Shown here piece by piece: positions 6,457 to 40,511 of a DNA stretch of 64,000 nt. The number at the start of each line of letters is the position of its first letter. Within the stretch, counting starts at the first letter, position 1. The notes below the pieces were generated by a model, which was given only the letters and a program-made list of their open reading frames with translations, was not told the DNA's origin and made no database searches. The translations under genes and the position numbers were made by a program. Source of the DNA: an uncultured Dehalococcoidales bacterium (GTDB lineage: Bacteria > Chloroflexota > Dehalococcoidia > Dehalococcoidales > UBA5760); assembly GCA_964472625.1 (NCBI GenBank), contig CAYYLM010000003.1, positions 33,294 to 97,293 on the forward strand. The letters run 5' to 3'.

Positions 6457-6458
6457 CC

Positions 6459-10841: not shown

Positions 10842-10875
10842 TATGGCCTCCGCTTATGCCATTTCACCATAGTGA

Positions 10876-11226
10876 CTATGCCCGGCGTGTGGCTGGTTTG
10901 GTTTGCCGTGCCTCACCCAGTACGTTGGCTACAAACTCCAGGGGTATCCGGCTTCTCTTCGCTATCCTCATCACTGCTTCCCGAAGGAGGCTGTTTAGAA
11001 GCCCGGCATCCTTACACTTGGGCAGAAGGGTAGCGAAGGCACTCTGTAGTTCGGTAATCGAGGCTTCCTCCTCGTGCAGCTCAAGACACTGCTCACAATC
11101 AGCGGCAGCCTCAATAAGGTCACGCAGGCTATCCTGAAGTAGCTCTCCCTGCCGGGCAAGAAATCTCTTGGCGCGCCCAAGCTGCTCTCGGTTAACCTTT
11201 AGGCTATAAACAATCGGATCATCCAT
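10876..11226 (-). CDS. hypothetical protein (116 aa)
   Basis: Strong RBS (AAAGGAGGGGGAG directly before the ATG) on the minus strand. Helical, acidic, no recognisable family. Confidence 0.5.
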   Translation of the reverse strand: MDDPIVYSLKVNREQLGRAKRFLARQGELLQDSLRDLIEAAADCEQCLELHEEEASITELQSAFATLLPKCKDAGLLNSLLREAVMRIAKRSRIPLEFVANVLGEARQTKPATRRA

Positions 11227-11358
11227 CTCCCCCTCCTTTAAAGGGGTCTACAAAAGGTGTGACAGAATATACTATACTTGGGTAGACGGCCCTTGTCAAT
11301 AGTCACAATCGGTCAACATTGGCTCTGGCAACACTTCACGGGGGCCTAAAAAAGGGTA

Positions 11359-25115: not shown

Positions 25116-25313
25116 ATGGTAGAAAGATTTCTAGAACCCGAGTTATACGGAAAACCACCGTCGGTCTGCCCCAAAGCCAATTGTGGAAGCACGTTTTTCA
25201 TCCCACATGAGGATGGGTGGCAGTGTTTTAATTGCATGAAGATTATCTATAAAGCTAACCGAAGCGTAACGAACCCACCCATTTTAAGGCGATACCAGCG
25301 GGAGAAGAACTGA
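25116..25313 (+). CDS. small zinc-ribbon protein, paralog B
   Basis: AGGAG RBS before ATG 25116 (the track starts at TTG 25107). KPPSVCPKANCG...HEDGWQCFNCMKIIYK matches paralog A. Confidence 0.55.
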   Translation: MVERFLEPELYGKPPSVCPKANCGSTFFIPHEDGWQCFNCMKIIYKANRSVTNPPILRRYQREKN

Positions 25314-25482
25314 AAATTGGCGGATTAGAACTCGATGGGGGGCACCGATATTTCCCCAAAAGGGAGAAAGAGGATGAATAAACATAGCAAAAACTGGCTA
25401 ATGGTTATGGCTTTGGTGTTAGGTGCTGGGGCATGTTCACAAAGTACTTAGTTAGTTGTTTCGATTTAGGAGGAGAGACGCC

Positions 25483-26280
25483 ATGGCTAGAATCTTAATA
25501 ATACCCTTGTTGTTAGCTGGTCTTGTGCTGCCGAGTTTATTAATCGGTTGCAGTGGAACTGGAAATACTGAAACGGAGTGCGACGTGACTACAAAAGCTG
25601 CGATTCCTCTAATAGATACCAATGTACCCCCGGCGATGGAAACAGCGACCTTTGCTTTAGGCTGATTCTGGGGACCGGACTCCCGGTTCGGGAGTCTAGA
25701 GGGGGTGATACGTACTCGTGTCGGATACGCCGGAGGGAGTACGGAAAACCCTACCTATTACAGCTTGGGCGATCACAGCGAGACAATTCAAATCGATTAC
25801 GACCCAACTCAGATATCATATAGGCAGTTATTAGAGGTTTTCTGGAATAGCCATAACCCAATATATGAACCTTGGTCACGGCAGTACATGTCAATAATAT
25901 TTTATCACAGCGAAGAGCAGAAAAGGCTGGCTATAGAGACGAAAGAGAGTGAGGAAGCTAGGCTGGGAAAGCATATTTTTACCGAGATCGTCCCCTTCTC
26001 GGAGTTCTATTTAGCTGAGGATTATCATCAGAAGTATTATCTCCGACAAGAGCCAGCCCTAATGGTAGAGTTTTCTGCTATCTACCCGGCTACCGAAGAC
26101 TTTATAGCTTCCACAGCGGTAGCCCGTGTTAACGGGTATGTTGGTGGCTACGGCGAACTGGCAACTCTTGAGGAGAGGTTGGGCCTCTTGGGCTTGTCTG
26201 AGGCAGGGATAAAAAGGTTGCTAGAAATTGCAGCTAGAGGACTTGAGCCAGTTTGTACCCTTCCCGATACCCCCAGCTAG
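25483..26280 (+). CDS. msrA: peptide-methionine (S)-S-oxide reductase MsrA with in-frame UGA (candidate selenocysteine) and lipoprotein signal
   Basis: Track ORFs 25456..25665 and 25705..26280 share one frame, split only by TGA 25663..25665. Read-through gives [39 protein letters not shown]...IDYDP..ISYRQLLEVFW. AGGAGGA RBS before ATG 25483. Signal peptide with LLIGC lipobox. Confidence 0.75.
25678..25696 (+). promoter_or_regulatory. SECIS-like stem-loop downstream of the msrA UGA
   Basis: Perfect 7-bp hairpin GACTCCC-GGTTC-GGGAGTC starting 12 nt after the TGA. The G/U-containing apical loop lies about 20-22 nt after the UGA. Confidence 0.55.
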
Positions 26281-26379
26281 GCAGTGCTGGTTCAACATCA
26301 TATAAATGAAATAGTGATAAGGACCTTATGGACTAAGATGACGGACAATGGCTTGAGCAGTGAAAAGGGCAAAGCCGGC

Positions 26380-27582
26380 ATGATGAGACTGGTCGCAGTG
26401 ATTCTGATCACCGTTCTCTCAGCTTACTTGTTGGCCAGCTGTTCGATGGTCGGTAGGCAGGTCAGGTTTGAGTTGCCGACGGACAATCTCCCACAAGACA
26501 AACCAGCTGATGACTTCAGTTGGGAGGTGGTACTTGGTGATGTGAACGGTGACAGTCAGCTAGATGTCATCTTTGCTGACGATGGTCAGAATAGGCTCTA
26601 TATCAATTACGGCTCTGGAGTGTTTAGCGATGTCACTTCAACGAGCATGCCGCCAGATACCGATTTGACTTGGGGCACAGCGCTGGGGGACATTAACGGT
26701 GATGGTCACCTGGACGTGGTGTTTGCGAATACCGGTCAAAATCGACTGTGTCTAAACGACGGCTCTGGGGTATTCAGGGATGTCACCTTGACCAATCTTC
26801 CGGAGGATAACGACGACAGCCGGGATGTGGCTGTTGGCGATGTAAATGGTGATGGTCATCTGGATATTGTCTTTGCCAGTCGCTTTGGCCCTAATCGGCT
26901 TCTCCTGAACGATGGATCTGGGGTATTCGGTGATGCGCCACCAGCCGACTTCTCCTCGGGTGGTGGCAACACCCGCGGGGTTGCTCTAGGGGATGTCAAC
27001 AATGACGATAACCTGGACATTGTATTTGCTGTCAAGGATGCCCGGAACCGGCTCCTTCTGAACGATGGATCTGGGACATTCAGTGATGTTACTGAAACCA
27101 ACCTTCCTTATGAGTACGATAATAGCCGAGGAATAGCGCTCGGAGATGTCAATAACGATGGTTATCTTGATATCGTCTTTGCTAATCGTCTGTCCAATCA
27201 GGGTCAGAGCAAGATCTATCTCAACGACGGTTACGGAGTGTTTACCGACGTCACCACCACTCACCTGCCTAAAGCCAACCACTGGAGCACTGATGTTGCT
27301 TTAGCGGACCTAGACGGCGATGGTGATCAGGATGTCGTGTTCGCCAACTTTGACGAGCAAAGCGTAATTTACCTTAACAACGGCTTGGGTGTATTTGAAA
27401 ATATTACCTCAACGCAACTTCCGGTTGGTAAGCAGCAGAGCCTTGGCGTTGCTCTCGGGGATGCTGATAGCGATGGTGACCTAGATATCATCTTTGCCAA
27501 CGCCGGTCAGAACAGTTTGTGGAACAATGTGACAGAACACTCGGTCTCTTTCGGCCCTGTCGGCTGCCGGTGCCCTAGCTGA
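26380..27582 (+). CDS. FG-GAP/VCBS repeat beta-propeller lipoprotein
   Basis: Repeated GDVNGDGHLD[IV]VFAN.GQNRL.LNDGSGVF.DVT units. The signal peptide MMRLVAVILITVLSAYLLASCS sets the preferred start at 26380 (track start 26284). Confidence 0.75.
   Translation: MMRLVAVILITVLSAYLLASCSMVGRQVRFELPTDNLPQDKPADDFSWEVVLGDVNGDSQLDVIFADDGQNRLYINYGSGVFSDVTSTSMPPDTDLTWGTALGDINGDGHLDVVFANTGQNRLCLNDGSGVFRDVTLTNLPEDNDDSRDVAVGDVNGDGHLDIVFASRFGPNRLLLNDGSGVFGDAPPADFSSGGGNTRGVALGDVNNDDNLDIVFAVKDARNRLLLNDGSGTFSDVTETNLPYEYDNSRGIALGDVNNDGYLDIVFANRLSNQGQSKIYLNDGYGVFTDVTTTHLPKANHWSTDVALADLDGDGDQDVVFANFDEQSVIYLNNGLGVFENITSTQLPVGKQQSLGVALGDADSDGDLDIIFANAGQNSLWNNVTEHSVSFGPVGCRCPS
26524..27528 (+). repeat. in-frame tandem FG-GAP repeat units (about 7 copies, approximate limits)
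   Basis: Periodic repetition of the [GD][DV]NGDG.LD..FA motif about every 47-50 codons, visible at the protein and partly at the DNA level. Confidence 0.6.
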
Positions 27583-27724
27583 GTTTCCCAGTGCCATTGA
27601 CTCTTACACCATAGCCATACATTCGATCTCGACGAATATCTCGGGCAAGACAAGCCCGGCGACGAGGGTAGTGCAGGGGCAGGTGGGTCTTTGGGGAAAA
27701 AGGCGTGATAGACTTGGTTCGTTG

Positions 27725-29011
27725 TCACAGGGTGCCCCACACTTTCAGTGCCGCCTCAAGCTCGGGGTTTTCCTTAGCTGCCTGCTCTAGCGGGATCCCA
27801 GCCATCACAGCATCAATTGCCTGCCGGAAGGCTTTGCCGCCGGCCCTGGGTCCCATAGGATGACCATGGATGGCGCCTCCGGCTCCGATGATCCAATCGG
27901 CCCCTAGGTCCTGCACCAAGCGTGGTACCGATCCCTGATGTACCCCCCCTCCGGGCATCGGGAAGGTGGCAGATAGGTCATAGAAGGGAGCACGCAGCAT
28001 CTGTGCTAGCTGAAGGTGCCGGTCTTTCAGGAAGGAAAACTTAGCGTAAGGGGAAGGATAAACTATGATATCGGCTCCGGCTAGGCGGGGGAGCTTACCC
28101 AGAACTAGTGATGAGGACATTCCGGAGACCGGCGATTCGTAGAGAACACCGGCGAAGTCGAGATGGGCTAATATCGGCACGTCAATCTCCGGGTCTTCAG
28201 CCAAGCCCTGCAATACTGATATGCCGGCTGTTAGGTAATTGAGCATGAGAGCGTTAGCCCCGGCGTCTATGGCTCTTTTGGCATTATCGCGCACCCTATC
28301 TGCACTATCCGTTATGTTGACGGTGTACAATGTTCTTTCCCCAGTCTCCTCAAAGGTCTGTCTTTCTGCCTCCATATAAAGCTTGACTCTATCCTCCAGC
28401 CGGCTGAATGGAGCGTCAGCCAGTAACTCATCATCCTTTATTATATCCACCCCGCCAGCAGCGGCTTCGCGGAAGAGTTTCGCTCCCACCTCGGGCGGGA
28501 AGCCGGTGCAGGGCTTGATCATATTATTCAGTAGTGGTCTTTCTGGTATGTCCAGTAGCTTCCGAATGCCGGGTATGCCGAATTTGGGTCCTTTGAATTC
28601 GCGGACAAAGGAGCGGGGGAAATGGAGATCCAGGAGCTTCAGGCGACCCATCATGGAGATGTTCCCGATGACGGTACTGAGCAGCATGGGTATCTGGGCA
28701 CCGAAATTGATGTGGGGGAAGGCGATATTGACCACAAAGGTCCGCCTCTCAATTCCCGCCGGCAGCTCAAACTCGTAGTGAGGTATCTCATATATGCCGA
28801 CGACCTTGCCAGCATGCTTCTGCCGCACCGCCGGCGTCTCCTCGGGTACGGGTACCCAGGTCCCGGTACTCTGCTCGATGGCAATGGAAACGGCATAATT
28901 CAGCACGTCTACATCGGGTTCTTGCTCGATTAGGTAGGTAGCAATTACGTGCTCTTCTGGATTGATACCTTCGGGCACATGGTACAAGGTCCAATCGTAC
29001 ATACTCTGCAT
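27725..29011 (-). CDS. RuBisCO large-subunit-like protein (form IV RLP)
   Basis: GGVDIIKDDE (carbamate Lys/metal ligands) and GAGGAIHGHP are conserved. IKPCTG, AHLDFAG and PGGGVH replace carboxylase residues. AAGGAGGA RBS before ATG 29011 (the track start 29059 overlaps the upstream gene). Confidence 0.8.
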   Translation of the reverse strand: MQSMYDWTLYHVPEGINPEEHVIATYLIEQEPDVDVLNYAVSIAIEQSTGTWVPVPEETPAVRQKHAGKVVGIYEIPHYEFELPAGIERRTFVVNIAFPHINFGAQIPMLLSTVIGNISMMGRLKLLDLHFPRSFVREFKGPKFGIPGIRKLLDIPERPLLNNMIKPCTGFPPEVGAKLFREAAAGGVDIIKDDELLADAPFSRLEDRVKLYMEAERQTFEETGERTLYTVNITDSADRVRDNAKRAIDAGANALMLNYLTAGISVLQGLAEDPEIDVPILAHLDFAGVLYESPVSGMSSSLVLGKLPRLAGADIIVYPSPYAKFSFLKDRHLQLAQMLRAPFYDLSATFPMPGGGVHQGSVPRLVQDLGADWIIGAGGAIHGHPMGPRAGGKAFRQAIDAVMAGIPLEQAAKENPELEAALKVWGTL

Positions 29012-29043
29012 TATCGTATATCCTCCTTGTTGATTAAGGCTGG

Positions 29044-29910
29044 CTAAAGCTTCACCCACGCCGGCACGTTAACCGGCATATCCTTGAAATCTTGGCATAC
29101 TTTAACGACGGCGGGCTCCACCGGGGTGCGCTCGATGCTTGATGCCCCGAGATAGCCGACGGCTTCGGTAGCCGCCAGTACAGGGGCCGTGCTCTTGGGG
29201 TCAGCCATGATGCCACCGTGAGTGATCGCTAGGAAGTCCTTCTGCGGTCGAACCTGCTTGGCGGCATCGATCAGCTCCTTAGTCACGCGGATGCTTTCGT
29301 TGGTGCTCATGACGGTTTCCGCACCAATCAGTCCACCCGCGGTCAGTCCGACGTGACAGGCTACCATGTCGACACCAGCCTTAGCCACTGTCTGAGCTTC
29401 TTGTGGAGTGAAGCAATAGCCGATGGTGAAGTAACCCAGTTCGTGAGCGAGTTCTAGTACCTTGGCTTCCTTATCAAAGCCCAAGCCCGATTCTTCCAGG
29501 TTCTTCCGGTACTTGGCGTCAGCGTCAATTAGGCCGACCGTGGGAAAGTTCATGAAACCCGAGACGCCAATATCCGCTAGTTGCCGGAACCACTGCTCCC
29601 AGACGGTTCTCGGGTCTTGGGCACAGAACCCGGCGATTACTGGTACCTCATTTACCTGAGCGGCTATTTCAGGGGCGTAATCCATAACCATTTCATTGTT
29701 CTGTCCTACCGGCATCAGCCCGCATAGTGAGCCAGCCCCGAAGTGCCGGAACCGGCCAGAGTTGTAAATACCAATAATATCCACCCCACCCCTTTCCTCC
29801 AGCTTGGCGGTGAAGCCGTCGCCAGCCCCGGCGACAATGATGGGCTTTCCCTCCTTCAATGTCTTCTTAAGCCGGCTTACGAGTTCCTCAGGGGTGTACC
29901 TCTTGGTCAT
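29044..29910 (-). CDS. phosphoenolpyruvate-hydrolase-like TIM-barrel protein (TIM-br_sig_trns family)
   Basis: KPIIVAGAGDGFTAKLEERGGVDIIGIYNSGRFRHFGAGSLCGLMPVGQNNEMV matches the family hallmark region. AGGAGGAAAGAA precedes ATG 29910. Confidence 0.75.
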   Translation of the reverse strand: MTKRYTPEELVSRLKKTLKEGKPIIVAGAGDGFTAKLEERGGVDIIGIYNSGRFRHFGAGSLCGLMPVGQNNEMVMDYAPEIAAQVNEVPVIAGFCAQDPRTVWEQWFRQLADIGVSGFMNFPTVGLIDADAKYRKNLEESGLGFDKEAKVLELAHELGYFTIGYCFTPQEAQTVAKAGVDMVACHVGLTAGGLIGAETVMSTNESIRVTKELIDAAKQVRPQKDFLAITHGGIMADPKSTAPVLAATEAVGYLGASSIERTPVEPAVVKVCQDFKDMPVNVPAWVKL

Positions 29911-29953
29911 TTCTTTCCTCCTAATTATAAATACTGTGCCTGGCAAGTTTATC

Positions 29954-31300
29954 CTAGAACGGAATGAACTCAGCTATATTATAATGGCTGCCCTTCTTCC
30001 AGGTGCCGGATAGCATCTCATCCAGTAGCTTTGCCATCAGGTCAGCAAACTCTGGCTCGTTCATATGCTGGTCTACCAGCAGCACATCCAGATTGGGCTT
30101 ATCCCGGTCAACCACTTGGCGCAAAGCGTCAACAAAACGTTCGGCACGCAGCGACCATTCAGGCTTCTCAGGATCGGAAACCCAGCAGGGAGCTGGTGAC
30201 TCCTCGGCCCAACCCAAATCCGGATTGGGACCGGCGGTGTCGTAGGCTCCCCATCCGCGCATCGGTACGCATAAAGCAGTCGGGCCAGTCGCTTGGTTGA
30301 GCTTATCAGCAATGTGCTTACCGATCATAAAGGCTTCGTCGAGTGAAGTACCGACGATGGTAACCGTTGGATTGTGGACATGAACCACCCGTCCCGGGAT
30401 GTCGAGTTCTCCTTTATATTTCTGCGGTACTGTCGCCGCGGGACCGAAATTTATCATATCCAGGCCTCCGGTGGAGACTACCTGGGGAATACCCGTGCGA
30501 CCGGCTGCCGTCAGGCGGTCAGGGCCAGCACTCAGGACACCACCAAGCAATAGGTCAGCGATTTCGTGGGTAGTGATGTCCAACATGCCGACAATATAGC
30601 CATCTAGGATCAACTCTTCCATTGAGCGACCTCCAGTGCCTACCGCGTGGTTAATCATCACGTCGTACCTTCCCCCGTCCTCAAAGTACTTGGAGGCCCG
30701 CAGCACGCAGGGTGTAGTTACCCCGAACATCGTGCAGCCGATAAGTGACTTCTCCTCCGCGACTCTTGGCTCAGGGACGGTAGCCATGCCCACGATGGCA
30801 CCAGCCGCATTGTTCAAGATTTTGCGCGTTACCACATTGAGCCCACCTTCGGCGATGGGGTAGAGCATACCAATATCCTTGGTGCCAACATAGGGGCGAA
30901 CATCACCCGAAGCCATGGTTGAAAGCACCAATTTAGGCATGCCCACGGGCAGCTTCTGCATAGCCTGCGTTGCCATACTCGTGCCCATCGAGCCGCCCAT
31001 GGCAATTATGCCGTCTAGCCTGCCGTGCTCCAGTAACTCAATGAGAACCCTGATGGCACCCTCAACGATGACCTCCGACGCCTTAGCCCGCTCCAGGGCA
31101 AAGATTTCGCCGGTGGCGCGTCCAACCTTGGCGACTACCTCACTGAGGCTGATATCAGCCCAGCCTACCTCTTTACCCACACTCATTTCCAGAATAATAG
31201 GGTTACCGCCAGCAGCACGCACTCGTTCAGCTAGGAAACGAATCTCAGTGCCCTTAGTATCTAAGATGCCGGCGACTACAATATTGGGTTTCTTCGTCAT
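29954..31300 (-). CDS. UPF0261 / Tm-1-like ATP-binding domain protein
   Basis: N-terminus IVVAGILDTKGTEIRFLAERV and a length of about 450 aa are typical of UPF0261. Confidence 0.75.
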   Translation of the reverse strand: MTKKPNIVVAGILDTKGTEIRFLAERVRAAGGNPIILEMSVGKEVGWADISLSEVVAKVGRATGEIFALERAKASEVIVEGAIRVLIELLEHGRLDGIIAMGGSMGTSMATQAMQKLPVGMPKLVLSTMASGDVRPYVGTKDIGMLYPIAEGGLNVVTRKILNNAAGAIVGMATVPEPRVAEEKSLIGCTMFGVTTPCVLRASKYFEDGGRYDVMINHAVGTGGRSMEELILDGYIVGMLDITTHEIADLLLGGVLSAGPDRLTAAGRTGIPQVVSTGGLDMINFGPAATVPQKYKGELDIPGRVVHVHNPTVTIVGTSLDEAFMIGKHIADKLNQATGPTALCVPMRGWGAYDTAGPNPDLGWAEESPAPCWVSDPEKPEWSLRAERFVDALRQVVDRDKPNLDVLLVDQHMNEPEFADLMAKLLDEMLSGTWKKGSHYNIAEFIPF

Positions 31301-31386
31301 TTCACTTACCTAGAACTGATTGTTGTCGGCTTAGTCTTAAGCCCTTTTCAACACCCTCGTAGCTTCGCGTAGTCGTCTTTGTCACT

Positions 31387-31415
31387 ATGATAAAATGGGT
31401 GCGGTCTGATGTCAA
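31387..31415 (-). promoter_or_regulatory. near-consensus sigma70 promoter for the UPF0261/TIM/RLP operon
   Basis: Minus strand: TTGACA (31415..31410), 17-nt spacer, TATCAT (31392..31387), about 87 nt upstream of ATG 31300. The leader contains the hairpin GGCTTA-AGAC-TAAGCC. Confidence 0.45.
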
Positions 31416-31757
31416 TATGGTCTCACACGCCACTCACGAAAAGGTTGGACAATAGGGCGCCTTGTTCGTAGCGGGTGTTACTCTCTAAACTTAGCTTAGG
31501 CGATTGACCAAAGAACTTGTGGTAGATTCTAAGATATTTGAAAGAGGGGATACGAAAGGCAGGCATGGATGGTGGGCTTATCTTCGTGTCCAGTAATTCG
31601 ATACAATGAGCCAATTGTGCATTACTTATGTGCTGTGAGAAACTGTAAGAACTCAGGTGTCGTGTTAGAAAAAATCCCAATTGTTTGCTTGCTTGGGCTG
31701 GAACAAGAGAAGTCTGTTTGCTTAAAGCCTTTTTCCGAACGGATCGCTTCAGTGCAT

Positions 31758-33407
31758 CTAGGGCCCTAATCTCGATAGCTCCACGGGCCTACTCTCCAAG
31801 GCCATTGTGTCGTCTTTCTTGCTAAGGACGATGTTGCTTAGCCACTGAGCATTATTTTCCTCGTCATAGTCACTACGGTAATGTGCGCCCCGGCTCTCCG
31901 TACGCAGCAAAGCCGAACGGATGACCATCTCGGACACCGTGACCATGTTAGTCAGTTTGATAGCATCTATTAATTGTCTAGGTCCCGTGATACGTGCTTC
32001 GCCTAGTCCGGAGCGTATCTGTTGCAAGTCAACAAGGGCCTCTCTTAGGCCACCATCGCTCCTGATAATACCAGCCTTGAACCACATAGTTCTTTTGATC
32101 TGAAGTAGCAAGTCGTCCAAGGGACATTTCCCGTCTTGGGAGAGCAGTGATCGTATCCTTTGAAGCTCAGGCTCAATCTGCTTCAGGTCTATTCTAGCTC
32201 GTGGAGTTTTCGACGCCCTAGATGCTGCCGATAGCCCGGCCTTCTTGCCGAAGACGAAGATTTCGGTAAGTGAATTACCTCCCAAGCGGTTGGCACCATG
32301 CACACCACTGCACACCTCACCTGCCGCGAAGAGTCCAGGTAACGAAGTGCTGCAGCCTTCATCTATCTTGATGCCGCCCATTTGGAAGTGAGCGACCGGG
32401 GTCACTAAGAGTGTCGCTTTGGCATCAGCCGTAACTCGAGTGGGCAGAAGGGCTTGTACCTGACGCATGGCCTTCTCTGGCACATCGGATAGATCTAGTG
32501 CTAATGCACCCTGGATATCTCGACCTTCAATCAACTCAGTCATCATAGCTTGCGCTAGTTTATCCCGGGTCATACGCGCCGTGTCTCGAAGTCCGTATTT
32601 CTCCAGAAGATCGGCACCTAGAGAATTTCTAATGGTGCCACCTACCCGGCCCACTATGAATTCGTATAGGATAACCTGGCTTATGGCTCCTACTGCAGTG
32701 CCCGTGGGATAGAATTGAACCATCTCCATATCCTGAAGTGGGACCCCAGCATCATAGGCCAAGGCATAGCCGTCCCCGGTTGTTCCCTTGGCGGTGCTTG
32801 TCCTCGAGTAGAGTTGCCCCAGTCCCCCTAACGCCAGTATTACGGCCTTAGCGTTGATGACGAAAACACTCCCCTTTCCATCAATTCCGATAGCACCCTG
32901 GACTCTTTCCTCACCAATTAGTCTAGTTATGAGTATCCCCTCCGCAAATTCTATCCCCGAGGCTATAGCCGCCGCCCGGAGCGGAAGCGTAAAACCCAGC
33001 CCATTTTTCACTGTCGCAACACAGCGGGGATAACTATGGCCCGGGACAGAACTTACGATAAGCTCACCACCTTTTTTGCTAAAGGCGATTCCTAACTCCT
33101 GTAGTTCAAGTACCTGGTGTGCTGAACCCTCCGCAAGGAGCTGGACTAACCTCTGATCATTAATGAACCGCCCGGCCGATATGGCGTCTTTAAAGTATGA
33201 CTCTGGGCTGTCCTCTGGCTTGATCACTACGCACATTTTGCCCGCGGCGATGGCGGTATTGTTGCCATAACCAGCCTGGGATTGGGAGAGCAAGACTACC
33301 TTTGCACCATGTTTTGCAGCCGCGATTGCAGCCCTCAGTCCGGCTCCCCCGCCGCCAATCACTAAGACATCAGTATCAATTTGAGTTGGCATTGACAAGT
33401 CCATCAT
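31758..33407 (-). CDS. FAD-dependent oxidoreductase of the SdhA/FrdA/NadB flavoprotein family
   Basis: DVLVIGGGGAGLRAA dinucleotide fold, HFQMGGIKID, GLFAAGEV..GVHGANRLGGNSL, RTESRGAHYRSDY. It lacks the SdhA covalent-FAD His context, and the NadB versus other assignment cannot be resolved by eye. Confidence 0.75.
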   Translation of the reverse strand: MMDLSMPTQIDTDVLVIGGGGAGLRAAIAAAKHGAKVVLLSQSQAGYGNNTAIAAGKMCVVIKPEDSPESYFKDAISAGRFINDQRLVQLLAEGSAHQVLELQELGIAFSKKGGELIVSSVPGHSYPRCVATVKNGLGFTLPLRAAAIASGIEFAEGILITRLIGEERVQGAIGIDGKGSVFVINAKAVILALGGLGQLYSRTSTAKGTTGDGYALAYDAGVPLQDMEMVQFYPTGTAVGAISQVILYEFIVGRVGGTIRNSLGADLLEKYGLRDTARMTRDKLAQAMMTELIEGRDIQGALALDLSDVPEKAMRQVQALLPTRVTADAKATLLVTPVAHFQMGGIKIDEGCSTSLPGLFAAGEVCSGVHGANRLGGNSLTEIFVFGKKAGLSAASRASKTPRARIDLKQIEPELQRIRSLLSQDGKCPLDDLLLQIKRTMWFKAGIIRSDGGLREALVDLQQIRSGLGEARITGPRQLIDAIKLTNMVTVSEMVIRSALLRTESRGAHYRSDYDEENNAQWLSNIVLSKKDDTMALESRPVELSRLGP

Positions 33408-33534
33408 TTACCCCCTGAATACTGACTGTCTAAAAGATAAATGAATTTGGACTTCCAGTCAAGCATAGCGAAATCATGCCTGATTGGTAATCACCCAAGG
33501 GAGTCAATTTAGTGGTCAACTGAGCTACCGCAAC

Positions 33535-34281
33535 TCACCTTAGGACGGCTTCAGGCATAACAACCGCATTCGTCAGGCGTTGCCCCAGCGCCTGCCACTG
33601 GAACTTCTTATGAAACCTTTCCAGGATATCGATGGTCTTCTTACCCAGCAGTCCCAGGAAGATGGCATTGGCTACGGCATGGGCGGTATCAAACCAGAGG
33701 CTATTAAGCTGAGATATAATGAAGGTCCTCGGTGTCAGGGGATAGATGAAGGCTGTCCAGAACCAGGTATTGACGATGAGGCCAAAGAGGTAACCCCAGA
33801 GGATGCCGAAAGCTGCCAGCCTTTTTCGGTCGGGATTAAGCCGTTTTAACAAATAACCGGCACTGACTCCAGCCATCCCCCAGGCAAACATCTGGTAGAT
33901 GGTCCACGGGCCCTGCCCGAGAAAGAAGTTGGAGATAAGGGCTGTTATCGCCCCCACCATGAATCCAGCCAGTGGGCCGAAGACATAACCCGAGCATATT
34001 ATCAGGTAGGTGCACGGCTGGACACTGGGTATGGCGGCAAAGGGAATTCTAACTACTGCGGAAACGGTGCTCAATATGCCGATGATAGCTATTTCCTTGG
34101 AGCCGATAGCGCTTCCCTCAAATTCAAAGAAGAAGGCGACAATGGTCAAACTGACCAGGATAACCGACATAAGCCCCCAGTTCTGCAAGATGTCAAGCGG
34201 TGAGGGACTAAATATCGGCGCCGTAAAAGCGGCGGCACCCAGTCCGATAATTACTAACAGAAAGATATATCTTGGTTTCAT
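33535..34281 (-). CDS. polytopic membrane protein, putative ECF substrate-capture (S) component
   Basis: 6-7 TM helices, last gene of the ECF operon, ATGA overlap with the ecfA stop. Confidence 0.55.
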   Translation of the reverse strand: MKPRYIFLLVIIGLGAAAFTAPIFSPSPLDILQNWGLMSVILVSLTIVAFFFEFEGSAIGSKEIAIIGILSTVSAVVRIPFAAIPSVQPCTYLIICSGYVFGPLAGFMVGAITALISNFFLGQGPWTIYQMFAWGMAGVSAGYLLKRLNPDRKRLAAFGILWGYLFGLIVNTWFWTAFIYPLTPRTFIISQLNSLWFDTAHAVANAIFLGLLGKKTIDILERFHKKFQWQALGQRLTNAVVMPEAVLR

Positions 34282-35963
34282 GACAGAATATCCAGGGCTT
34301 CGCTAACGGTCAGTATTTTGTTGGAGACCCCATAGCGTTCGAATGATTGTGCCAGGCGGTTTATCTGCGGTGAAAAAAGGAGGGCTTGAGACAGAGCCTG
34401 GTGTTTTTCACCATCGATGATAACCTTTCCCTCGCTCAGGAGGATAACTCGGTCAGCATATTCGGCTACTATCTCGACATCGTGGGTTACTAAAATCACA
34501 GTGTTACCCTCGGTGCGGTATTCATTCAAGAACCGCATCAGTTCGCTTTTCAGGCGATAATCCATGCCCCTGGTTGGTTCATCAAGAATCAAGACCTTGG
34601 GTTTTGTCGCCAGGACTGAAGCCAGTGCCACCCGCTGCTTTTCGCCACCACTCAAGGAACGAGGGTAGTGGTTCTTGTATTCATTAAGCTGAAATCTCTC
34701 CAGCATCTCAGCGGTGCGTGGTTCTATCTCTTCGCGGCTAAAGCCCAAATTCTTCAGGGTGAAGGCAATCTCATCAGAGACGGTATCGGCGAAGAGGTGG
34801 TCGTTGGGGTTTTGAAAAACAAAGCCCACCTTTCGCGCCAGTTCCGCAATCGTCGCTTCTCTGGTATCAATGCCGCTAACCCTAATTCTGCCCTTAGTCG
34901 GTACCAGGAGGCGGTTAAAGTGCTTTGCCAGCGTTGTTTTACCCGAGGCGTTTCGCCCCATAATGGTGATGAACTCCGCCTCGCCTATCTTAAGATTTAT
35001 GTTTCTCAGGGCGAGGAGTCCATTAGGGTAGGTATAGCCGAGCCTCTCGACACTAACTAGGGGGTTGGTGATTTCCCGCCCGTTACCCCCGCTAGTATCT
35101 TGAATCGGCGTAGTATTCTCAAAGACCTTCCTGATGATAGCCCGCCCCTCCTTAACGGTCAGGGGCACCCGGTCTATTTTGACGCCTCTATCGCGTAATT
35201 CCTGAACCAGACGAATCATGGGGGGGACACCGATGCCAATTCGGGAAAGCTCGGGGTAGCAATTGGTCATGACGTCTCTAACCTCACCATCAATAGCCAC
35301 CATCCCATCATTTAAGACTATCAATCGGTCGGCATACTGAAGTACCCTGTCGAGACGGTGCTCAATCAGTATCACGGTAAGACCGAGTTCGTCGTTCAGC
35401 CGGGTTATTATCGACAGCACCTCTTCAGCCCCCTTGGGATCAAGCTCTGAAGTCGGCTCGTCCAGTATTAGGATGTCGGGGTGGAGTGCCAGCACCGAGG
35501 CAATGGCAACCTTCTGTTTTTCCCCACCGGAGAGCTCACTGAGCTGCCGATAACGTAGGTTAGCGATGCCAAGTGTATCCAGTGATTCCTCCACCCGTTT
35601 GGCGATAAGATCTCGGGGGAAGGCGAGGTTCTCCAGCCCAAAGGCAATCTCCCGCTCGACATCCAGGCTCACCAGCTGATTTTCCGGGTCCTGAAACACG
35701 AAGCCGACTCTGGTAGCTAGCTCCTTAGTGGAGTGTTTGAGGGTATCCAGGCCACTAACCAGCACTCGACCATAAATCTTACCGCCGTAAAAGTGGGGTA
35801 TCAGACCATTAAGGCAGCGGCCAAGACTGGACTTACCGCCTCCGGAGGGCCCCGCCACCAGAACAAACTCTCCCTCCCCGATTTCCAGGCTAATGTCCCT
35901 GAGGGCGGGGTGAGTAGTATCGCTATAGTAAAAAGTCAAACCTTCTATTCTAATCAAGGTCAA
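34278..35963 (-). CDS. fused energy-coupling factor ATPase (EcfA-EcfA', two ABC domains)
   Basis: Two Walker A sites (GPSGGGKSS, GRNASGKTT), two LSGGEKQ[KR]VA signatures, two ILDEPT Walker B motifs. Confidence 0.85.
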   Translation of the reverse strand: MTLIRIEGLTFYYSDTTHPALRDISLEIGEGEFVLVAGPSGGGKSSLGRCLNGLIPHFYGGKIYGRVLVSGLDTLKHSTKELATRVGFVFQDPENQLVSLDVEREIAFGLENLAFPRDLIAKRVEESLDTLGIANLRYRQLSELSGGEKQKVAIASVLALHPDILILDEPTSELDPKGAEEVLSIITRLNDELGLTVILIEHRLDRVLQYADRLIVLNDGMVAIDGEVRDVMTNCYPELSRIGIGVPPMIRLVQELRDRGVKIDRVPLTVKEGRAIIRKVFENTTPIQDTSGGNGREITNPLVSVERLGYTYPNGLLALRNINLKIGEAEFITIMGRNASGKTTLAKHFNRLLVPTKGRIRVSGIDTREATIAELARKVGFVFQNPNDHLFADTVSDEIAFTLKNLGFSREEIEPRTAEMLERFQLNEYKNHYPRSLSGGEKQRVALASVLATKPKVLILDEPTRGMDYRLKSELMRFLNEYRTEGNTVILVTHDVEIVAEYADRVILLSEGKVIIDGEKHQALSQALLFSPQINRLAQSFERYGVSNKILTVSEALDILS

Positions 35964-36876
35964 CCCTCTGTTTCAGGTATGCCAGCGGCAGTAGTGCCAC
36001 TAGCAGTGCTGCCATTAGCCCGAGTAGCCATGCCTCCCAGCCGGTAGGACTTACCCATGACACGGTAGGGTAGTAGTGATATTGCCCATAGCCATTGAGA
36101 CCCATAAAGATGCCCAGTGCCGCCGGAAGGAGGCAAAACACCAAGGTGGTAATGTCCGTCGGGCTGAAGCCTAGGTCGCGGTAAAAGGTGCGCTGCCGCC
36201 CACTACCGAAGGCTCGCGACTCCATGGCTTCGGCGACCTGAACGGCTCTATCCAGGGAATTAGATAGCAGGGCGGTCACGATAGCGGTGCGGCTCTTTAT
36301 TCTCTGGGGTAACCGGCCCCTGTCCAGCTCGAGACCCCTTGACCGCTGAACATCGGTAATGCGCGCTATATCATCAAGCAGGGTAGGGATAAACCTGGCA
36401 GAAAGCGAGGTAACCAGTACCGACTTATAGGGTAACCTGAGCTTTATCATCGCCAGCATCATGTCATCAGGGTTAACCGTGAAAGTGAGCAGGGCAAAGG
36501 CGGAGATTATCGAAAGTAGCCTGAGCGACATGACTGCCCCGTAGATGATAGCCTCCAGCGTTATTACCGGAACCCCCACCAGCGGCAGGTGAAACGGAGC
36601 CTCGAACAGAACATGAGTGCCGTGAGAGCTCACCAGGGTATTTATGAGGATGATTGCTGCCGAAAGATAGAGTGCCAGCCTCATAGCGGAAAGCCACTCC
36701 GACCACACCCGGGCTGCCTTTACCAGCGGCAGCGTTGACAGAAACACCACGAGCAGAAAGAGGGGACTGTCGAGCACCAGGGAAAGGATAAGGATGCTGG
36801 TAATCCAGCCCAGCTTGGAGAAGGGATTAAGCCGGTGGACTAGGGTACCTTTATCCTGATATCTAAAGCTCCTCAC
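35950..36876 (-). CDS. ECF transporter transmembrane (T) component, CbiQ/EcfT family
   Basis: Polytopic, with the conserved ARxxxxRG-type coupling motifs (SLSARFIP..., VQRSRGLELD) of EcfT. Confidence 0.8.
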   Translation of the reverse strand: MRSFRYQDKGTLVHRLNPFSKLGWITSILILSLVLDSPLFLLVVFLSTLPLVKAARVWSEWLSAMRLALYLSAAIILINTLVSSHGTHVLFEAPFHLPLVGVPVITLEAIIYGAVMSLRLLSIISAFALLTFTVNPDDMMLAMIKLRLPYKSVLVTSLSARFIPTLLDDIARITDVQRSRGLELDRGRLPQRIKSRTAIVTALLSNSLDRAVQVAEAMESRAFGSGRQRTFYRDLGFSPTDITTLVFCLLPAALGIFMGLNGYGQYHYYPTVSWVSPTGWEAWLLGLMAALLVALLPLAYLKQRVDLD

Positions 36877-37913
36877 TACTGGGGCAACCTCAGTGTCTCT
36901 CCTTCAGTAACCACCACGGCACAGGCATACTTATAATCGTCGGGGTGATTGATCAGGACATCCACGGCAGCTTTTACACCGGCTTCATCCAATCCAGAGA
37001 CCACCCAGACCACGTTCTCGCCGGCGCCAACGCCCTTCGGGTTCCAGATACTCTGGGTCGCCTGGATGAGGCCGGTACCGGCACCGTATCCATTAACCAG
37101 CTCACCAGCTGAGTCGAAGACCACAAGTGCCCCGTCTTCAAAGTGACCGAAAAAGCCGAGCCGGTTCCAGGGCTCGTTTAGCTCCTCGACTGGTGCAAAG
37201 TCACTGGTGCCCACCAAGACGAGGTTACTGGACTCCTTATCCCCGGCTGATAGCTCATCAAAACTCTGGCAGGTAACATCCGGGACACCCAGCCCCATTA
37301 GTCTATCAGCTATCTGTCTTGCCTCCTCTTCCCAGCCACTCTGATAGGCAACCACGGTAGGGTAAACCACTCCTCTGATGCCGTGAACAAACGGCTCCGG
37401 AAAGTCGCCGATTATGGCCGGAATAAACTGGCGGAAGCTCCAATCGTGATAGTCCCAGTGCTCACTATCTCCATCCCGAAGAATATAGCCCCCGGCGCCG
37501 GTGCTGAGCGAAATGCCGTTTATATAGAAAAGCCAGTCTTCCTTGGTCTTGTTGGACCCCTCGTATTTAGAGCTGATACCCTCTATTGAGCTCACAAAGC
37601 CGCCCCCGTATTTGGTCTCGACGCTGGCCACCATCTGCAGGCCGTCCAGAGCCGTAGTGTCCTCACCAATGGCTACACTCTTTTCCAAAATAGCCGGCTC
37701 ACTGAAACCTCGGGTAACTATGATGCTGACTGAGGAGCCTGAGCTAGCCAGACCGCTGTCTTCTTGGGGGGGGAGACTCTCAGCCGGGCTGGGGTTACCT
37801 TCGTGGGAAGCGACGTTACCCCCCAGTGCTCCCGACACGCCGTCGGCACAGCCACAGAGCAGGGCTGTGAGCAGGGCTATGATAGCCAGGCTGATAAACT
37901 GCCTAGGCCGCAC
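36876..37913 (-). CDS. DUF4430 (transcobalamin-like C-terminal domain) lipoprotein
   Basis: LLCGC lipobox. SVSIIVTRGF...TALDGLQ...KYGGGFVSSIEGI...EDWLFYINGISLSTGAGGYILRDGDSEHWDYHDW fits DUF4430. Confidence 0.65.
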   Translation of the reverse strand: MRPRQFISLAIIALLTALLCGCADGVSGALGGNVASHEGNPSPAESLPPQEDSGLASSGSSVSIIVTRGFSEPAILEKSVAIGEDTTALDGLQMVASVETKYGGGFVSSIEGISSKYEGSNKTKEDWLFYINGISLSTGAGGYILRDGDSEHWDYHDWSFRQFIPAIIGDFPEPFVHGIRGVVYPTVVAYQSGWEEEARQIADRLMGLGVPDVTCQSFDELSAGDKESSNLVLVGTSDFAPVEELNEPWNRLGFFGHFEDGALVVFDSAGELVNGYGAGTGLIQATQSIWNPKGVGAGENVVWVVSGLDEAGVKAAVDVLINHPDDYKYACAVVVTEGETLRLPQ

Positions 37914-38439
37914 GACGCTTCCTCCTCCTTCGGATAGTAAGGGGAATAGCGATTGCCAAAACTACCGCGATAATTAACCACATTATGGGAGACCCCGCCG
38001 CAAGTTCAGCTATCTTCCCGACCGGCGGTGCCAGGCCCACCAGAACACGGAGTGGTATTTTAACCCCACAGCCAACCTTCAGTTCTGATGCGGGCATTAG
38101 AGAGATGGCACATACCGTCGCCTCATAATCGCCGCGTGCCCCAAGCGGCGGCGTTACGGCTACTTCCACCACCTGACTATCGCCTGGCTCCAGAATAAAT
38201 TCCTCCGGGGAAACGCTGGACCATTCCTTAATTTCACCCTCGACATATACCTGGCATAACCCTTGTTCCCCAGAGGTATTGATGACCACTACCGATTGGG
38301 AGGCCTTCATCAGTGGGTAGGCCTCAAGCTCAAGCTGTCCGGGGGTTACCCCGATCCCCGAAGCCAGTACTCCACCGGGGAACAGTAATAGCCCCAGCAA
38401 CAAGGTAAGCGGTAGTAACACCCCTAATTTCCTAGTCAA
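37903..38439 (-). CDS. secreted Ig-like-fold protein with C-terminal TM anchor and polybasic tail
   Basis: Signal peptide, beta-rich middle, hydrophobic IMWLIIAVVLAIAIPL followed by RRRRKRRAA. Confidence 0.5.
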   Translation of the reverse strand: MTRKLGVLLPLTLLLGLLLFPGGVLASGIGVTPGQLELEAYPLMKASQSVVVINTSGEQGLCQVYVEGEIKEWSSVSPEEFILEPGDSQVVEVAVTPPLGARGDYEATVCAISLMPASELKVGCGVKIPLRVLVGLAPPVGKIAELAAGSPIMWLIIAVVLAIAIPLTIRRRRKRRAA

Positions 38440-38501
38440 CGAACCTGCTTCCTCTCTTAACTACAGGAGGTAGTTAGCCTCCAGTAGGCACATCTCTACC
38501 A

Positions 38502-40511
38502 TTATGGCGCTTCCGCTGCCCAGAAGATGACGGTGCCGCTTTGCTCACCCACCCCAGTATAGCTTTCCGGGACGGTAAGCGTGGCGGAGCACTCCGCATC
38601 ATTACCACGGCTAATTACTTCAGCGAACAGGTCCCACAGGTCGCCATTAAGTTCGAGACCCTCGAAATAGAGATCCCCAGCCTCTCCGGACATTTCACAG
38701 GTCACCTCGGCATCCCAGGCACCGACGTTGGTTATGGTTATCAGTTGAGGATCACTCGTGTCCCGGGGGCCCAGCTCACCGAAGTCTAGGCTGCTTGGCT
38801 CGACGGTAATGGCTATCGCCGGTATGATAGTGGCCGTCAAGCCTACTTCACCGGTAACTCCAGAACCGGTGCCGACGGTGACGGTAACCCGGTTACTGCG
38901 GATAAAGCCCTCCTTCTCCGCGTAGATCTCAAGGGTGGCATCCATATCTACGGTGATATCCACCGTACCTAGGGCCCCGGTAGTGTAGTTAGTGTTGGCA
39001 TGGACGGTTGCCCCTTCACAGGGCGACCAATCATTGGTACTATCGCTGTACTCACTTACGGTGACGGTAAATTGCTCGCCTACCGCAGGCTCGGTGTTGT
39101 CAACCTCAATCCTGAGCGGTAGAGCGCCCCAGTTATTATCGGTGATGTAATAGAAGAGGATCTCCTGGTGCGGCGGGTTAGGGGGTGTGGTCTCGCCAAG
39201 GATAAAACCTCCGGCGCCAACTAGGGCACTGAAATAGTCCACCCGGTAGAGCCAGGCGCTAGTCATCGAGCCTTCCTCCCCCCCGATTGAGGTTATATAT
39301 AGACTCTCAAACGCCTCCCCATACTCGTCAGTTGTTTCGTAGGCGAAACTACCAGCCTGAGATGCTTCGTCCAAGGCTCCGAGTACCGTCGGATTCTCAG
39401 AATAGTAGGGATTGTTGCTGTTGGTCGCCGTAACTATCGACTCCGTAACCGTAACACTGCCACTCCAGATGGTGCTGCTCTGCCCTTCGATTCTGACGTC
39501 AACGCTATACCCCTCTTCCCCAGTCGGCTCCAGGGCGACCACCGGATAGGAATCACCCAGCGAGGCAATTATGGCTTTGGCCGTTGTCTGGGACGGCCAG
39601 GCCCCCGGATAACCGTCCTGAAAGTAGAACTCACCACCCGCCTGCTGGTAAGTCAGGAGGTCATCAACCGGGGTATTATCCCCGGTGGAAGTCCAGCTGG
39701 CACCGTTGGGGTCTTGGCCGCAGGCCACTATGGCACTTATTGCCCAGGAATCAGTCTCGGCATTAGTCGAACCCCAGGACAAAAAACCGCCGTTAGCCTG
39801 TTGGGTTGATTTAATATAGGCTAGGGCACTAACTATCGGTGCGGAACCGGCTGTCTCCCCGGCGGAAATTAAGGCCATCACGGCCGCACCAGTCATGTCA
39901 ACATCACTGGCTAACCCCACCGAATAGGCCCAGCCACCGTCTCCGTTCTGGTTATCTATAATAAAATCTACCGCATCGGTGATAATCTGATAACTCTGAC
40001 TCCGTCCCGCAGCGATTAGCGCCATGACGCCAAAGATATCATCGTTGAGAGACGCTTCCTCACCAATCTGCTGGGTGATATCGTCATAGGTTCCTTCCAG
40101 CAGAGAAACAAAGTCACGGCCGCCGAAATTAGTGGGGTCCTCATCCGAAGCAACAATAGCTAATATCATCCGCGAGTAGTCAGTTGGCGAACTGGCGCTA
40201 CCGGCATTAGCAGCTAGGTAATCAACGATAGAGTTGTCGCCCACCTGCCAGTTGTGGGGGTCCTCATCGGCCGCGGCGATTGCCATCGTCACCCAGGCCG
40301 AATCAACGAAGCTACCGATTGAGCCATCGCTGCCCTGCTCACCACTGAGGTAGTCCAGAGCGTTTGCCACCTCGGGGTCGGTAGCCTGCATGGGGTAGGA
40401 GTCTGCTGCCATAACCGGGGCGATGAACAGTGATGCTGAAGTCGCGGCTAGGGCAATTATTGCGGTAACAATGTGAGCTATAGTCTTTTGCCTCTTCACA
40501 GTAAAACGCAC
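38502..40511 (-). CDS. secreted multidomain protein: prenyltransferase/squalene-oxidase-like alpha/alpha repeats + DUF4430 + Ig-like domains
   Basis: Signal peptide (VMA/AD). Repeats ALDYLSGEQGSDGSIG, DFIIDNQNGDGGWAYS, ALAYIKSTQQANGGFLSWG. Then a DUF4430-like block (VDVRIEG...TVLGALD...SAWLYRVD...GAGGFIL). The GTG start is uncertain by about 4 codons. Confidence 0.65.
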   Translation of the reverse strand: MRFTVKRQKTIAHIVTAIIALAATSASLFIAPVMAADSYPMQATDPEVANALDYLSGEQGSDGSIGSFVDSAWVTMAIAAADEDPHNWQVGDNSIVDYLAANAGSASSPTDYSRMILAIVASDEDPTNFGGRDFVSLLEGTYDDITQQIGEEASLNDDIFGVMALIAAGRSQSYQIITDAVDFIIDNQNGDGGWAYSVGLASDVDMTGAAVMALISAGETAGSAPIVSALAYIKSTQQANGGFLSWGSTNAETDSWAISAIVACGQDPNGASWTSTGDNTPVDDLLTYQQAGGEFYFQDGYPGAWPSQTTAKAIIASLGDSYPVVALEPTGEEGYSVDVRIEGQSSTIWSGSVTVTESIVTATNSNNPYYSENPTVLGALDEASQAGSFAYETTDEYGEAFESLYITSIGGEEGSMTSAWLYRVDYFSALVGAGGFILGETTPPNPPHQEILFYYITDNNWGALPLRIEVDNTEPAVGEQFTVTVSEYSDSTNDWSPCEGATVHANTNYTTGALGTVDITVDMDATLEIYAEKEGFIRSNRVTVTVGTGSGVTGEVGLTATIIPAIAITVEPSSLDFGELGPRDTSDPQLITITNVGAWDAEVTCEMSGEAGDLYFEGLELNGDLWDLFAEVISRGNDAECSATLTVPESYTGVGEQSGTVIFWAAEAP

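Follow-up and report, generated by a model that had tools for sequence, protein, structure and literature searches.

A three-gene unit encoding a UPF0261 protein, a triosephosphate isomerase (TIM)-barrel protein of family PF09370, and a form IV RuBisCO-like protein (RLP) is located on the minus strand of a 64-kb stretch of contig CAYYLM010000003.1 (positions 33,294 to 97,293) from an uncultured Dehalococcoidales bacterium; the entire stretch is referred to as the window, and coordinates are given within it. The unit recurs in other bacteria and in metagenomes, its RLP has replaced five residues of carboxylating RuBisCO, and its UPF0261 protein belongs to a family in which a kinase has been characterized. 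We consider the chances about even that the trio marks an undescribed small-molecule pathway, and not CO2 fixation or standard methionine salvage, an estimate that also covers the sequence-based pathway model presented below. No link of RLPs with UPF0261, Tm-1, PF09370, FGGY kinases, or phosphosulfolactate phosphatase was found in the searchable literature, in which the work on RLPs was partly covered; an earlier mention is possible.

Organization of the Three-Gene Unit

In the direction of transcription, the UPF0261 gene (31300..29954, minus strand, 448 residues; Pfam PF06792, E=5e-50, and PF23189, E=2e-68) is followed after 43 nt by the TIM-barrel gene (29910..29044, minus strand, 288 residues; PF09370, E=3e-88) and, after a further 32 nt, by the RLP gene (29011..27725, minus strand, 428 residues; PF00016, E=6e-49, and PF02788, E=2e-13). 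The order of the first two genes is that of the corresponding domains in Tm-1. Direct reading of the sequence places a ribosome-binding site, AGGAGG, ahead of the TIM gene (29922..29917, minus strand) and another ahead of the RLP gene (29027..29022, minus strand), and the position of the latter supports the ATG at 29011, not the GTG at 29059, as the RLP start; RLP homologues are 427–438 residues in length. A sigma-70-type promoter, TTGACA-17-TATCAT (31415..31387, minus strand), matches the consensus at 11 of 12 positions, and a 5′ leader of approximately 86 nt (31301..31386, minus strand) lies between this promoter and the UPF0261 start. The promoter and the three open reading frames (ORFs), including their coordinates and strand, had been proposed in an initial annotation from the sequence and were correct to the base. 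A simple scan of the minus strand inside the unit gave no promoter- or terminator-like site.

Near-consensus promoters are not a chance occurrence in this genome, since the window holds eight promoter-like sites with at least 11 of 12 matches (positions 2311, 2505, 11299, 19905, 31415, 40582, 41227, and 45020) as compared with 0.72 ± 0.8 in shuffled sequences; the Dehalococcoidia-like genome seems to rely on such −35/−10 promoters. A search of 27000..32500, leader included, against Rfam at E≤1 yielded zero matches, and the leader neither contains the motif found ahead of the Bacillota clusters described below nor aligns with the leader of locus L089.

The limits of the unit are evident from two related loci, L095 and L100, in which 87% DNA identity to the window is confined to 31426..27725, beginning approximately 10 nt upstream of the −35 box and ending at the RLP stop codon, and the flanks are unrelated. 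Because only this block is common to them and the window, the promoter-to-stop unit is taken to be real and to have been passed on as one block. Locus L092 (SMTZ1_10015262) is 94.7% identical to the window at the DNA level, flanks included, and neither the two promoter hexamers nor the 17-nt spacer between them is altered in L095 and L092. The same gene order is found in L089 (identity of 80% for the RLP, 82% for the TIM barrel, and 83% for UPF0261), where a tRNA gene lies ahead of the trio and a molybdate-type ATP-binding cassette (ABC) transporter alongside; the best genome match is an uncultured Dehalococcoidia metagenome-assembled genome (MAG), L004, at 91%. Transcription of the three genes as one operon, from the promoter to the RLP stop codon, is predicted jointly with the whole pathway model, and the combination is evenly poised between holding and failing.

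The RuBisCO-Like Protein

The RLP belongs to form IV of the RuBisCO superfamily, as indicated by PF02788 and PF00016, the retained metal site (K192, D194, and E195), and the five replaced carboxylase residues. Among solved structures, MtnW enolases are the nearest (2oek, E=8e-99), and identity to Geobacillus kaustophilus MtnW is 42%. Among NCBIfam models, it exceeds the cutoff of NF007095 (413.3 bits versus 409) and remains below those of TIGR03332 (371 versus 513.6 bits) and of the OiaX equivalog NF042437 (199.5 versus 700 bits). The scores against the Chlorobium tepidum RLP and 3qfw were 218 and 129 bits, respectively; we take the latter entry to be a DeepYkr-type RLP from Rhodopseudomonas palustris.

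Residues were mapped by alignment to spinach RbcL at 18 positions, namely 17 catalytic or ribulose-1,5-bisphosphate (RuBP)-binding positions and T173; the reference sequence had the correct length (475 residues) and the correct residue at all 18 checked positions. In spinach numbering, with the window residue in parentheses, the RLP keeps E60 (E46), T65 (T51), N123 (N117), K175 (K166), K201 (K192), D203 (D194), E204 (E195), H294 (H283), K334 (K324), G381, G403, and G404, and it carries T173→M, K177→C168, R295→L284, H298→A287, H327→V317, and S379→G354. Thus 12 of the 17 residues of carboxylating RuBisCO are kept, and K177, R295, H298, H327, and S379 are lost. The motifs named in the initial annotation were all located at the corresponding sites: GGVDIIKDDE (K192/D194/E195), IGNISMM (N117), IKPCTG (K166, C168), HLDFAG (H283, L284, A287), and PGGGVH (G354–G356). 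A monophosphate substrate appears to be implied by the retention of the P1 phosphate site together with the non-polar character of the P2 site. The resulting 18-site signature, ETNMKCKDEHLAVKGGGG, is present in 88 of the best 120 database matches to the RLP.

It is very unlikely that the RLP is a true MtnW (2,3-diketo-5-methylthiopentyl-1-phosphate enolase) and the operon a variant of methionine salvage, although this is what automatic annotation would return: the NCBIfam name would follow from NF007095, the best PDB matches are MtnW, and relatives have generic or automatic "MtnW" names, including the JGI label "DK-MTP-1-P enolase" (the source names of adjacent 50%-identity RLP clusters are all generic). 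The kinase, RLP, and phosphatase make-up of the fuller modules described below also resembles MtnK, MtnW, and MtnX (PMC5893883). MtnW/YkrW is the closest characterized protein in sequence and structure, and it shares with the window RLP the Mg2+/carbamyl-Lys core and, as far as can be predicted, a single-phosphate substrate site with a non-polar tail pocket. At spinach positions 60, 123, and 334, however, MtnW has Gly, Lys98, and Ser, whereas the window RLP has Glu, Asn117, and Lys. Lys98 (G. kaustophilus numbering) is reportedly the general base of the MtnW enolase, as described by Imker et al. in 2007. A Lys occupies the RuBisCO N123 position in every YkrW-clade sequence of our tree, whereas Asn117 is invariant in 19 of 19 members of the window clade. 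Neighbor-joining distance trees of 150 representatives at 50% identity, calculated without bootstrap, place G. kaustophilus MtnW together with 26 representatives in a YkrW/MtnW clade several nodes from the window clade, and the window RLP groups with RLPs that have its 18-site signature and with other TIM/UPF0261-linked RLPs; the clade names follow general usage and PMC5893883.

The gene context also differs from that of MtnW. The MtnW system includes the kinase MtnK and the haloacid dehalogenase (HAD)-type MtnX in place of UPF0261 and the ComB-type phosphatase of the present module, as well as MtnA, MtnB, and MtnD; no mtnK/A/B/X/D-type Pfam family was detected in the annotated part of the window (about 20–40 kb) or in the annotated flanks of its relatives (7–10 kb per side where the contig allows). 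Furthermore, the O2-dependent MtnD step is impossible in the hosts, which are strict anaerobes. The RLP is therefore judged not to be MtnW, and its placement inside a characterized clade (MtnW or DeepYkr), which the initial annotation had named as a point to check, is not borne out. DeepYkr, the 5-methylthioribulose-1-phosphate 1,3-isomerase of Rhodospirillum rubrum and R. palustris, is comparable as an RLP that isomerizes a ketose monophosphate via an enediolate in the salvage of a by-product of S-adenosylmethionine (PMC5893883), but it is distant in sequence, and its partners are MtnP/MtnA and a cupin, not UPF0261 and PF09370.

The initial annotation had described the RLP as an enolase/isomerase-type enzyme and not a CO2 fixer. 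The second part agrees with the five lost residues, and the RLP is judged not to be a carboxylating RuBisCO (forms I–III); the first part can be kept only conditionally, since the retention of E60, N123, and K334 leaves room for carboxyl-group chemistry in this clade. We regard it as doubtful that the RLP performs carboxyl-group or C–C chemistry on a kinase product, i.e., that it decarboxylates, carboxylates, or hydrolytically cleaves a keto-acid or ketose monophosphate, yet several features favor it: E60, T65, N123, K175, K201, D203, E204, H294, and K334 are all kept, P0211, the representative nearest the decarboxylase OiaX, likewise keeps E60, T65, N123, and K334, and phosphatases of the ComB family act, according to the family annotation, on 2-phospho-carboxylic acids. 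These features are countered by the loss of K177, H327, and S379 and by a distal pocket that is non-polar and not of a carboxylate-binding kind. OiaX-like proteins keep R295 and H327 (signature ...HRWHK...), whereas the window RLP has Leu, Ala, and Val at 295, 298, and 327. The DUF1537-kinase RLP pathways for D-apiose and acid sugars, including OiaX, are analogous in that a dedicated kinase makes the phospho-keto substrate of the RLP; Carter et al. reportedly described in 2018 that the DUF1537 kinase makes this compound and the RLP then converts it. However, their kinases belong to another family, and no DUF1537 kinase was found among the annotated neighbors of the window RLP or its relatives. 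Apiose RLPs are mentioned in PMC6302742 and PMC7325909, and the function of Moorella-type RLPs was called unknown in the latter, a 2020 paper.

The UPF0261 Protein

To our knowledge, MarK (Saro_1862) and tomato Tm-1 are the only UPF0261 proteins with a known structure or function. The window protein scores 415 bits against NF002674 (cutoff 335), and its PDB matches are MarK (9mpy, E=1e-62) and Tm-1 (E=1e-61), with which it shares the two-domain fold family, the ATP-site Lys, and two acceptor-site His residues. MarK was reported in 2025 as an ATP-dependent kinase that releases ADP (structure 9MPY), the first catalytic activity in the family; it was active only after an evolved E16K substitution, the compound it phosphorylated was an aromatic phenol, and 25 Å separate its ATP site from its acceptor site (PMC12624787). 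Lys16 of the window protein corresponds to the MarK E16K site and to K20 of Tm-1, its LDTK16G aligning with D14-T15-K16 of MarK; hence, the Lys whose introduction activated MarK is naturally present in the window protein. The acceptor-site residues G193, H218, and H309 (MarK G195, H219, and H304) are conserved. By contrast, the ketone ligand His348 of MarK, which acts on lignin-derived phenolic ketones, corresponds to Tyr353, and T196 to Val194. MarK is encoded in an acvCDEF operon without a TIM partner, and no acv carboxylase gene was found near the trio in the annotated part of the window. The known role of Tm-1 also differs, being the binding of a viral replicase.

These comparisons indicate that the window protein is a member of the MarK family and not a MarK orthologue, and that the two proteins probably have different substrates. 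By analogy with MarK, it is a putative ATP-dependent kinase, and the idea of a kinase acting ahead of the RLP is strengthened by the MarK activity. The initial annotation held UPF0261 and PF09370 to be the two halves of plant Tm-1, in accordance with the fusion described in PMC5028733, and it knew of an enzymatic role for neither; this view has been overtaken for UPF0261 by the MarK kinase (PMC12624787) and still stands for PF09370.

The PF09370 TIM Barrel

The TIM-barrel protein matches PDB 2p10 (Mll9387) with E=4e-68. We know of no activity for PF09370, despite a structure solved in 2007. Two paralogous types occur in the clusters described below: the window barrel shares 78% identity with TIMa of the six-gene clusters and approximately 48% with TIM1 of Thermacetogenium phaeum, as against 37% with TIM2, and is thus of the TIMa/TIM1 type, TIMb/TIM2 being a separate paralogue. 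TIMa/TIM1 are characterized by a Cys-His pair where strand 6 ends (C185-H186) and by the motif MNFPTVGLID, both of which are absent in TIMb/TIM2.

An AlphaFold2 model (predicted local distance difference test, pLDDT, 80) shows an eight-stranded barrel with disordered lids at residues 53–68 and 125–131. Foldseek with this model returned 2p10 and then generic barrels, i.e., PanB, Pdx1, triosephosphate isomerase, and methylisocitrate lyase (TM ~0.55), and the profile search against the PDB returned 2p10 and a weak match to nitronate monooxygenase (E=6e-5). Assignment of the barrel as a phosphoenolpyruvate (PEP) hydrolase, a flavin mononucleotide (FMN) enzyme, or an aldolase was rejected, because these matches are too generic to indicate chemistry. 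Phylogenetic profiles show co-occurrence of UPF0261 and PF09370 (STRING score 0.988; PMC8963296).

Conservation of the Neighborhood and the Larger Module

Neighborhoods were surveyed from the RLP (83 loci) and from TIMa (a metagenome scan); many loci derive from MAGs or short contigs, and the locus counts are phylogenetically non-independent. The module is found in Bacillota, Chloroflexota, and metagenomes in four gene orders. The order UPF-TIMa-RLP is that of the window, L004, L089, L092–L096, and L100. Approximately 18 Bacillota loci, including T. phaeum, Moorella thermoacetica, and Syntrophomonadaceae, have the order [GlpP]-RLP-TIM1-[ComB]-UPF-TIM2, in which the ComB-like phosphatase is PF04029 and a gene for a GlpP-like antiterminator (PF04309) often lies upstream. 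The order SorC-ComB-RLP-UPF-TIMa-TIMb was present in three of three long contigs examined (L086–L088), and RLP-ComB alone in L091. The core therefore comprises the RLP, UPF0261, and TIMa, with TIMb, the ComB-like phosphatase, and a GlpP- or SorC-type regulator as variable members, and the trio of the window is, on comparison of these gene orders, a reduced form or minimal core of a five- to six-gene module.

Many TIM relatives are 72–94% identical to the window barrel. RLPs with the window signature adjoin PF09370/UPF0261 in 24 of 27 loci, as compared with 0 of 60 for RLPs of an FGGY-linked sister clade (Fisher p=2e-18, phylogeny not corrected for), and 25 of the 26 informative loci with a TIMa at least 69% identical contain a RuBisCO-family gene. 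Conservation of the neighborhood in other genomes, which the initial annotation had suggested checking, is thus evident. A fortuitous adjacency of functionally unrelated genes could be sought in the three window-signature RLPs without the pair (L012, L016, and L091) and the TIMa locus without an RLP (L097), but its probability is practically negligible: it is already contradicted by the conservation data, namely an association in four gene orders, at least two bacterial phyla, and many metagenomes, with the window-type signature tracking the pair.

The RuBisCO-family genes beside the pair fall into at least five active-site classes by their 18-site signatures. In addition to the window type, these are ETNMKSKDEHLSVKGGGG (55% identity to the window RLP), GTNMKCKDEHT[TA]LRAGGG (41%), EQEVKNKDEH[FL]IIRASGR (36%), and ETNIKNKDEHRHHKSGGG (34–37%). 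The last class, found on metagenome contigs L142, L144, L146, L148, L149, and L150 with UPF0261 and PF09370 genes adjacent, differs from spinach at 2 of the 18 sites, K177N and Ile at 173; the latter is also found in carboxylating-type representatives, which leaves K177N as the only difference from RuBisCO and speaks for the carboxyl-group or C–C chemistry considered above. Its best NCBIfam matches are RbcL/form III (311–323 bits, below the cutoffs).

A conserved leader RNA was observed ahead of those Bacillota RLP clusters that include a gene for a GlpP-like antiterminator (L001 9815..9905 and L003, L005, L007, L008, L009, L010, and L013), with the sequence GGGAC-N-AGAGA-NN-AGAGT-RR-GTCCCAC ... 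GGGGTGGGAC-TTTTT, which is predicted to fold as either an antiterminator or a terminator hairpin; one compensatory change occurs in L009. The core pattern was present in 9 of 91 loci, i.e., eight in which a glpP-like gene was detected and L008, in which none was detected. An Rfam search of three of these loci matched only a tRNA and a PYLIS element.

The FGGY-Linked Sister Clade and the Role of the Pair

The sister clade comprises RLPs that are 57–63% identical to the window RLP and have the same residue at 16 of the 18 active-site positions, the differences being Met for L284 and Ser for G354. Its hosts are mostly Chloroflexota, Caldisericota, and archaea, and no characterization was found in the searchable literature. 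In 52 loci (within L021–L083), a XylB-like FGGY kinase gene lies directly upstream of the RLP gene, as in L077 (kinase 8439..9968, RLP 10001..11236), and PF09370 and UPF0261 are lacking; the kinase scores 342 bits against XylB (cutoff 380). Frequent neighbors are a HemL-like class-III aminotransferase, a saccharopine-dehydrogenase-like protein, and DUF401. The two arrangements look like the displacement of one kinase family by another. Of the evidence at hand, the presence of two unrelated kinase families beside nearly identical RLP active sites argues most strongly that the kinase would supply the phosphorylated substrate of the RLP, and it also suggests a pentulose-like substrate.

Two further RLP contexts point the same way. 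In a Desulfosporosinus MAG (L085 5245..15329), an RLP 52% identical to that of the window is located among GlpA/GlpB/GlpC-like genes together with pyruvate kinase, enolase, and an FGGY kinase, which points to polyol-phosphate metabolism, and the Anaerofustis RLP adjoins a gene for a SorC-type regulator.

At least five RLP classes that differ greatly in their distal pockets have the pair beside them, which could also be explained if UPF0261 and the TIM barrel served RuBisCO-family proteins as an ATP-dependent accessory or regulator, such as an activase-like remodeller or a sensor. The known activity of Tm-1 is ATP-bridged protein binding (PMC12624787, PMC5028733), and its TIM domain has been termed "signal transduction" (PMC5028733). 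Nevertheless, this explanation is highly improbable, since MarK phosphorylates a small molecule (PMC12624787), the corresponding place in the sister clade is occupied by an FGGY sugar kinase, the module includes a phosphatase and regulators of the phospho-sugar type, and the pair is common without an RLP (L155–L171) and occurs in plants and fungi (PMC5028733).

In a broader reading, the pair would be a general and ancient partner of RuBisCO-superfamily enzymes with a role like that of phosphoribulokinase (PRK), making 1-phospho-2-keto compounds for enolization by enzymes of the RuBisCO fold. We consider this generalization unlikely; if it is true, some of the enzymes, possibly including the window clade, would carboxylate or decarboxylate substrates other than RuBP, or cleave their C–C bonds, in anaerobes that include acetogens, syntrophs, and Dehalococcoidia, and plant and fungal Tm-1-like proteins would acquire a first physiological function.

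Proposed Pathway

Direct observation covers the gene unit and how it is conserved, the pattern of residues, and the family memberships described above. From these we infer the catalytic steps, their order, and the nature of the substrate. We see roughly equal chances for and against the proposal that the operon is the minimal core of a widespread module that converts a phosphorylated small molecule in anaerobes, with a kinase step followed by enolization by the RLP.

In the first step, UPF0261 would use ATP to phosphorylate a hydroxyl group adjacent to or conjugated with a carbonyl, for which there is one precedent; the substrate would be small and sugar-like, probably of about five carbons, and keto or deoxy. 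The RLP would then hold the single phosphate in the P1 site formed by the retained T51, G356, G378, and G379, with the tail of the substrate in the non-polar pocket L284/A287/V317 that replaces the P2 ligands R295/H298/H327. At the Mg2+/carbamyl-Lys192 center, it would abstract the proton alpha to the carbonyl to yield an enediolate, with tautomerization, isomerization, or epimerization as the outcome; because the Lys98 of MtnW is absent, the role of base probably falls to the carbamate or to Lys166, as in RuBisCO. TIMa might, as a guess, perform a nearby isomerase- or lyase-type step on the same skeleton. In the fuller modules, TIMb and the ComB-family phosphatase would complete the path by removing the phosphate, a salvage logic resembling that of MtnK and MtnW-MtnX (PMC5893883), and control would come from a phospho-sugar-sensing regulator of the GlpP or SorC type.

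Several points weigh against this pathway. The search with the TIM fold was generic, and the role of the barrel and the order of steps are guesses. The kinase precedent is the single enzyme MarK, with its E16K dependence, phenol substrate, and distant sites (PMC12624787). The retention of E60, N123, and K334 fits carboxyl chemistry as well as simple enolization. The trees are unbootstrapped neighbor-joining trees, and the loci counted are not independent of one another. No ComB, GlpP, or TIMb remnant was found anywhere in the 64-kb window, so that the phosphatase is missing there and the salvage logic is incomplete. Finally, the distant UPF0261-TIM pairs of L155–L171 (32–42% identical) have no nearby RLP, and therefore the pair is broader than its association with RLPs, and UPF0261-PF09370 proteins also occur in plants and fungi (PMC5028733).

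As substrates, phospho-autoinducer-2/4,5-dihydroxy-2,3-pentanedione (AI-2/DPD; by analogy with LsrK/LsrR), 5-deoxyribulose-1-phosphate, methylthioribulose-1-phosphate, and a pentulose phosphate were considered, and none is asserted.

Genes Flanking the Unit

Upstream of the unit in the window are a gene for a fumarate-reductase/aspartate-oxidase-like flavoprotein (31758..33407) and then an energy-coupling factor (ECF) transporter cluster; downstream, convergent genes encode an FG-GAP repeat protein and MsrA. An ORF of 85 residues between the flavoprotein gene and the operon promoter (31423..31680, minus strand) has no Pfam match, lies outside the block in common with L095, and is probably not part of the RLP unit. 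Within the flavoprotein gene, approximately 1.1 kb of the window (32147..33281) is not present in L092, in which positions 1–565 correspond to window 33847..33282 and positions 555–7409 to window 32146..25264; either L092 appears to have lost this segment by deletion, or the lineage of the window to have acquired it by insertion.

The ECF cluster (33535..40511, minus strand), upstream of the flavoprotein gene, is outside the RLP unit and consists of an S component, a fused double ATPase, and a CbiQ-type T component; two DUF4430 proteins come next, one of which has a prenyltransferase/squalene-cyclase-like toroid domain. The cluster is possibly one for uptake of the corrinoid type. The msrA gene (25636..26280, plus strand) contains an in-frame TGA at 25663..25665, and its upstream reading, METATFALG*FWGPDS, corresponds to the GCFWG active-site motif with TGA replacing Cys. 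The protein matches PF20939 ("Selenoprotein MsrA helical domain") in Pfam and appears to be a selenoprotein; in this selenocysteine reading, the ORF list starts MsrA too late, at 25705, because of the in-frame TGA.

Perspective

The RLP clade has hundreds of members in anaerobes that are automatically annotated as "MtnW" or "RuBisCO." The several RLP classes beside the pair and the FGGY kinase in place of UPF0261 provide natural comparisons for inferring the substrate, and cultured hosts, namely M. thermoacetica and T. phaeum, are available. Solving the module would give a function to many misannotated "methionine salvage" and "RuBisCO" genes in sediment, digester, and groundwater metagenomes, would extend the RuBisCO superfamily by a new reaction or pathway, and would give a first clue to the roles of plant and fungal Tm-1-like proteins beyond virus resistance.

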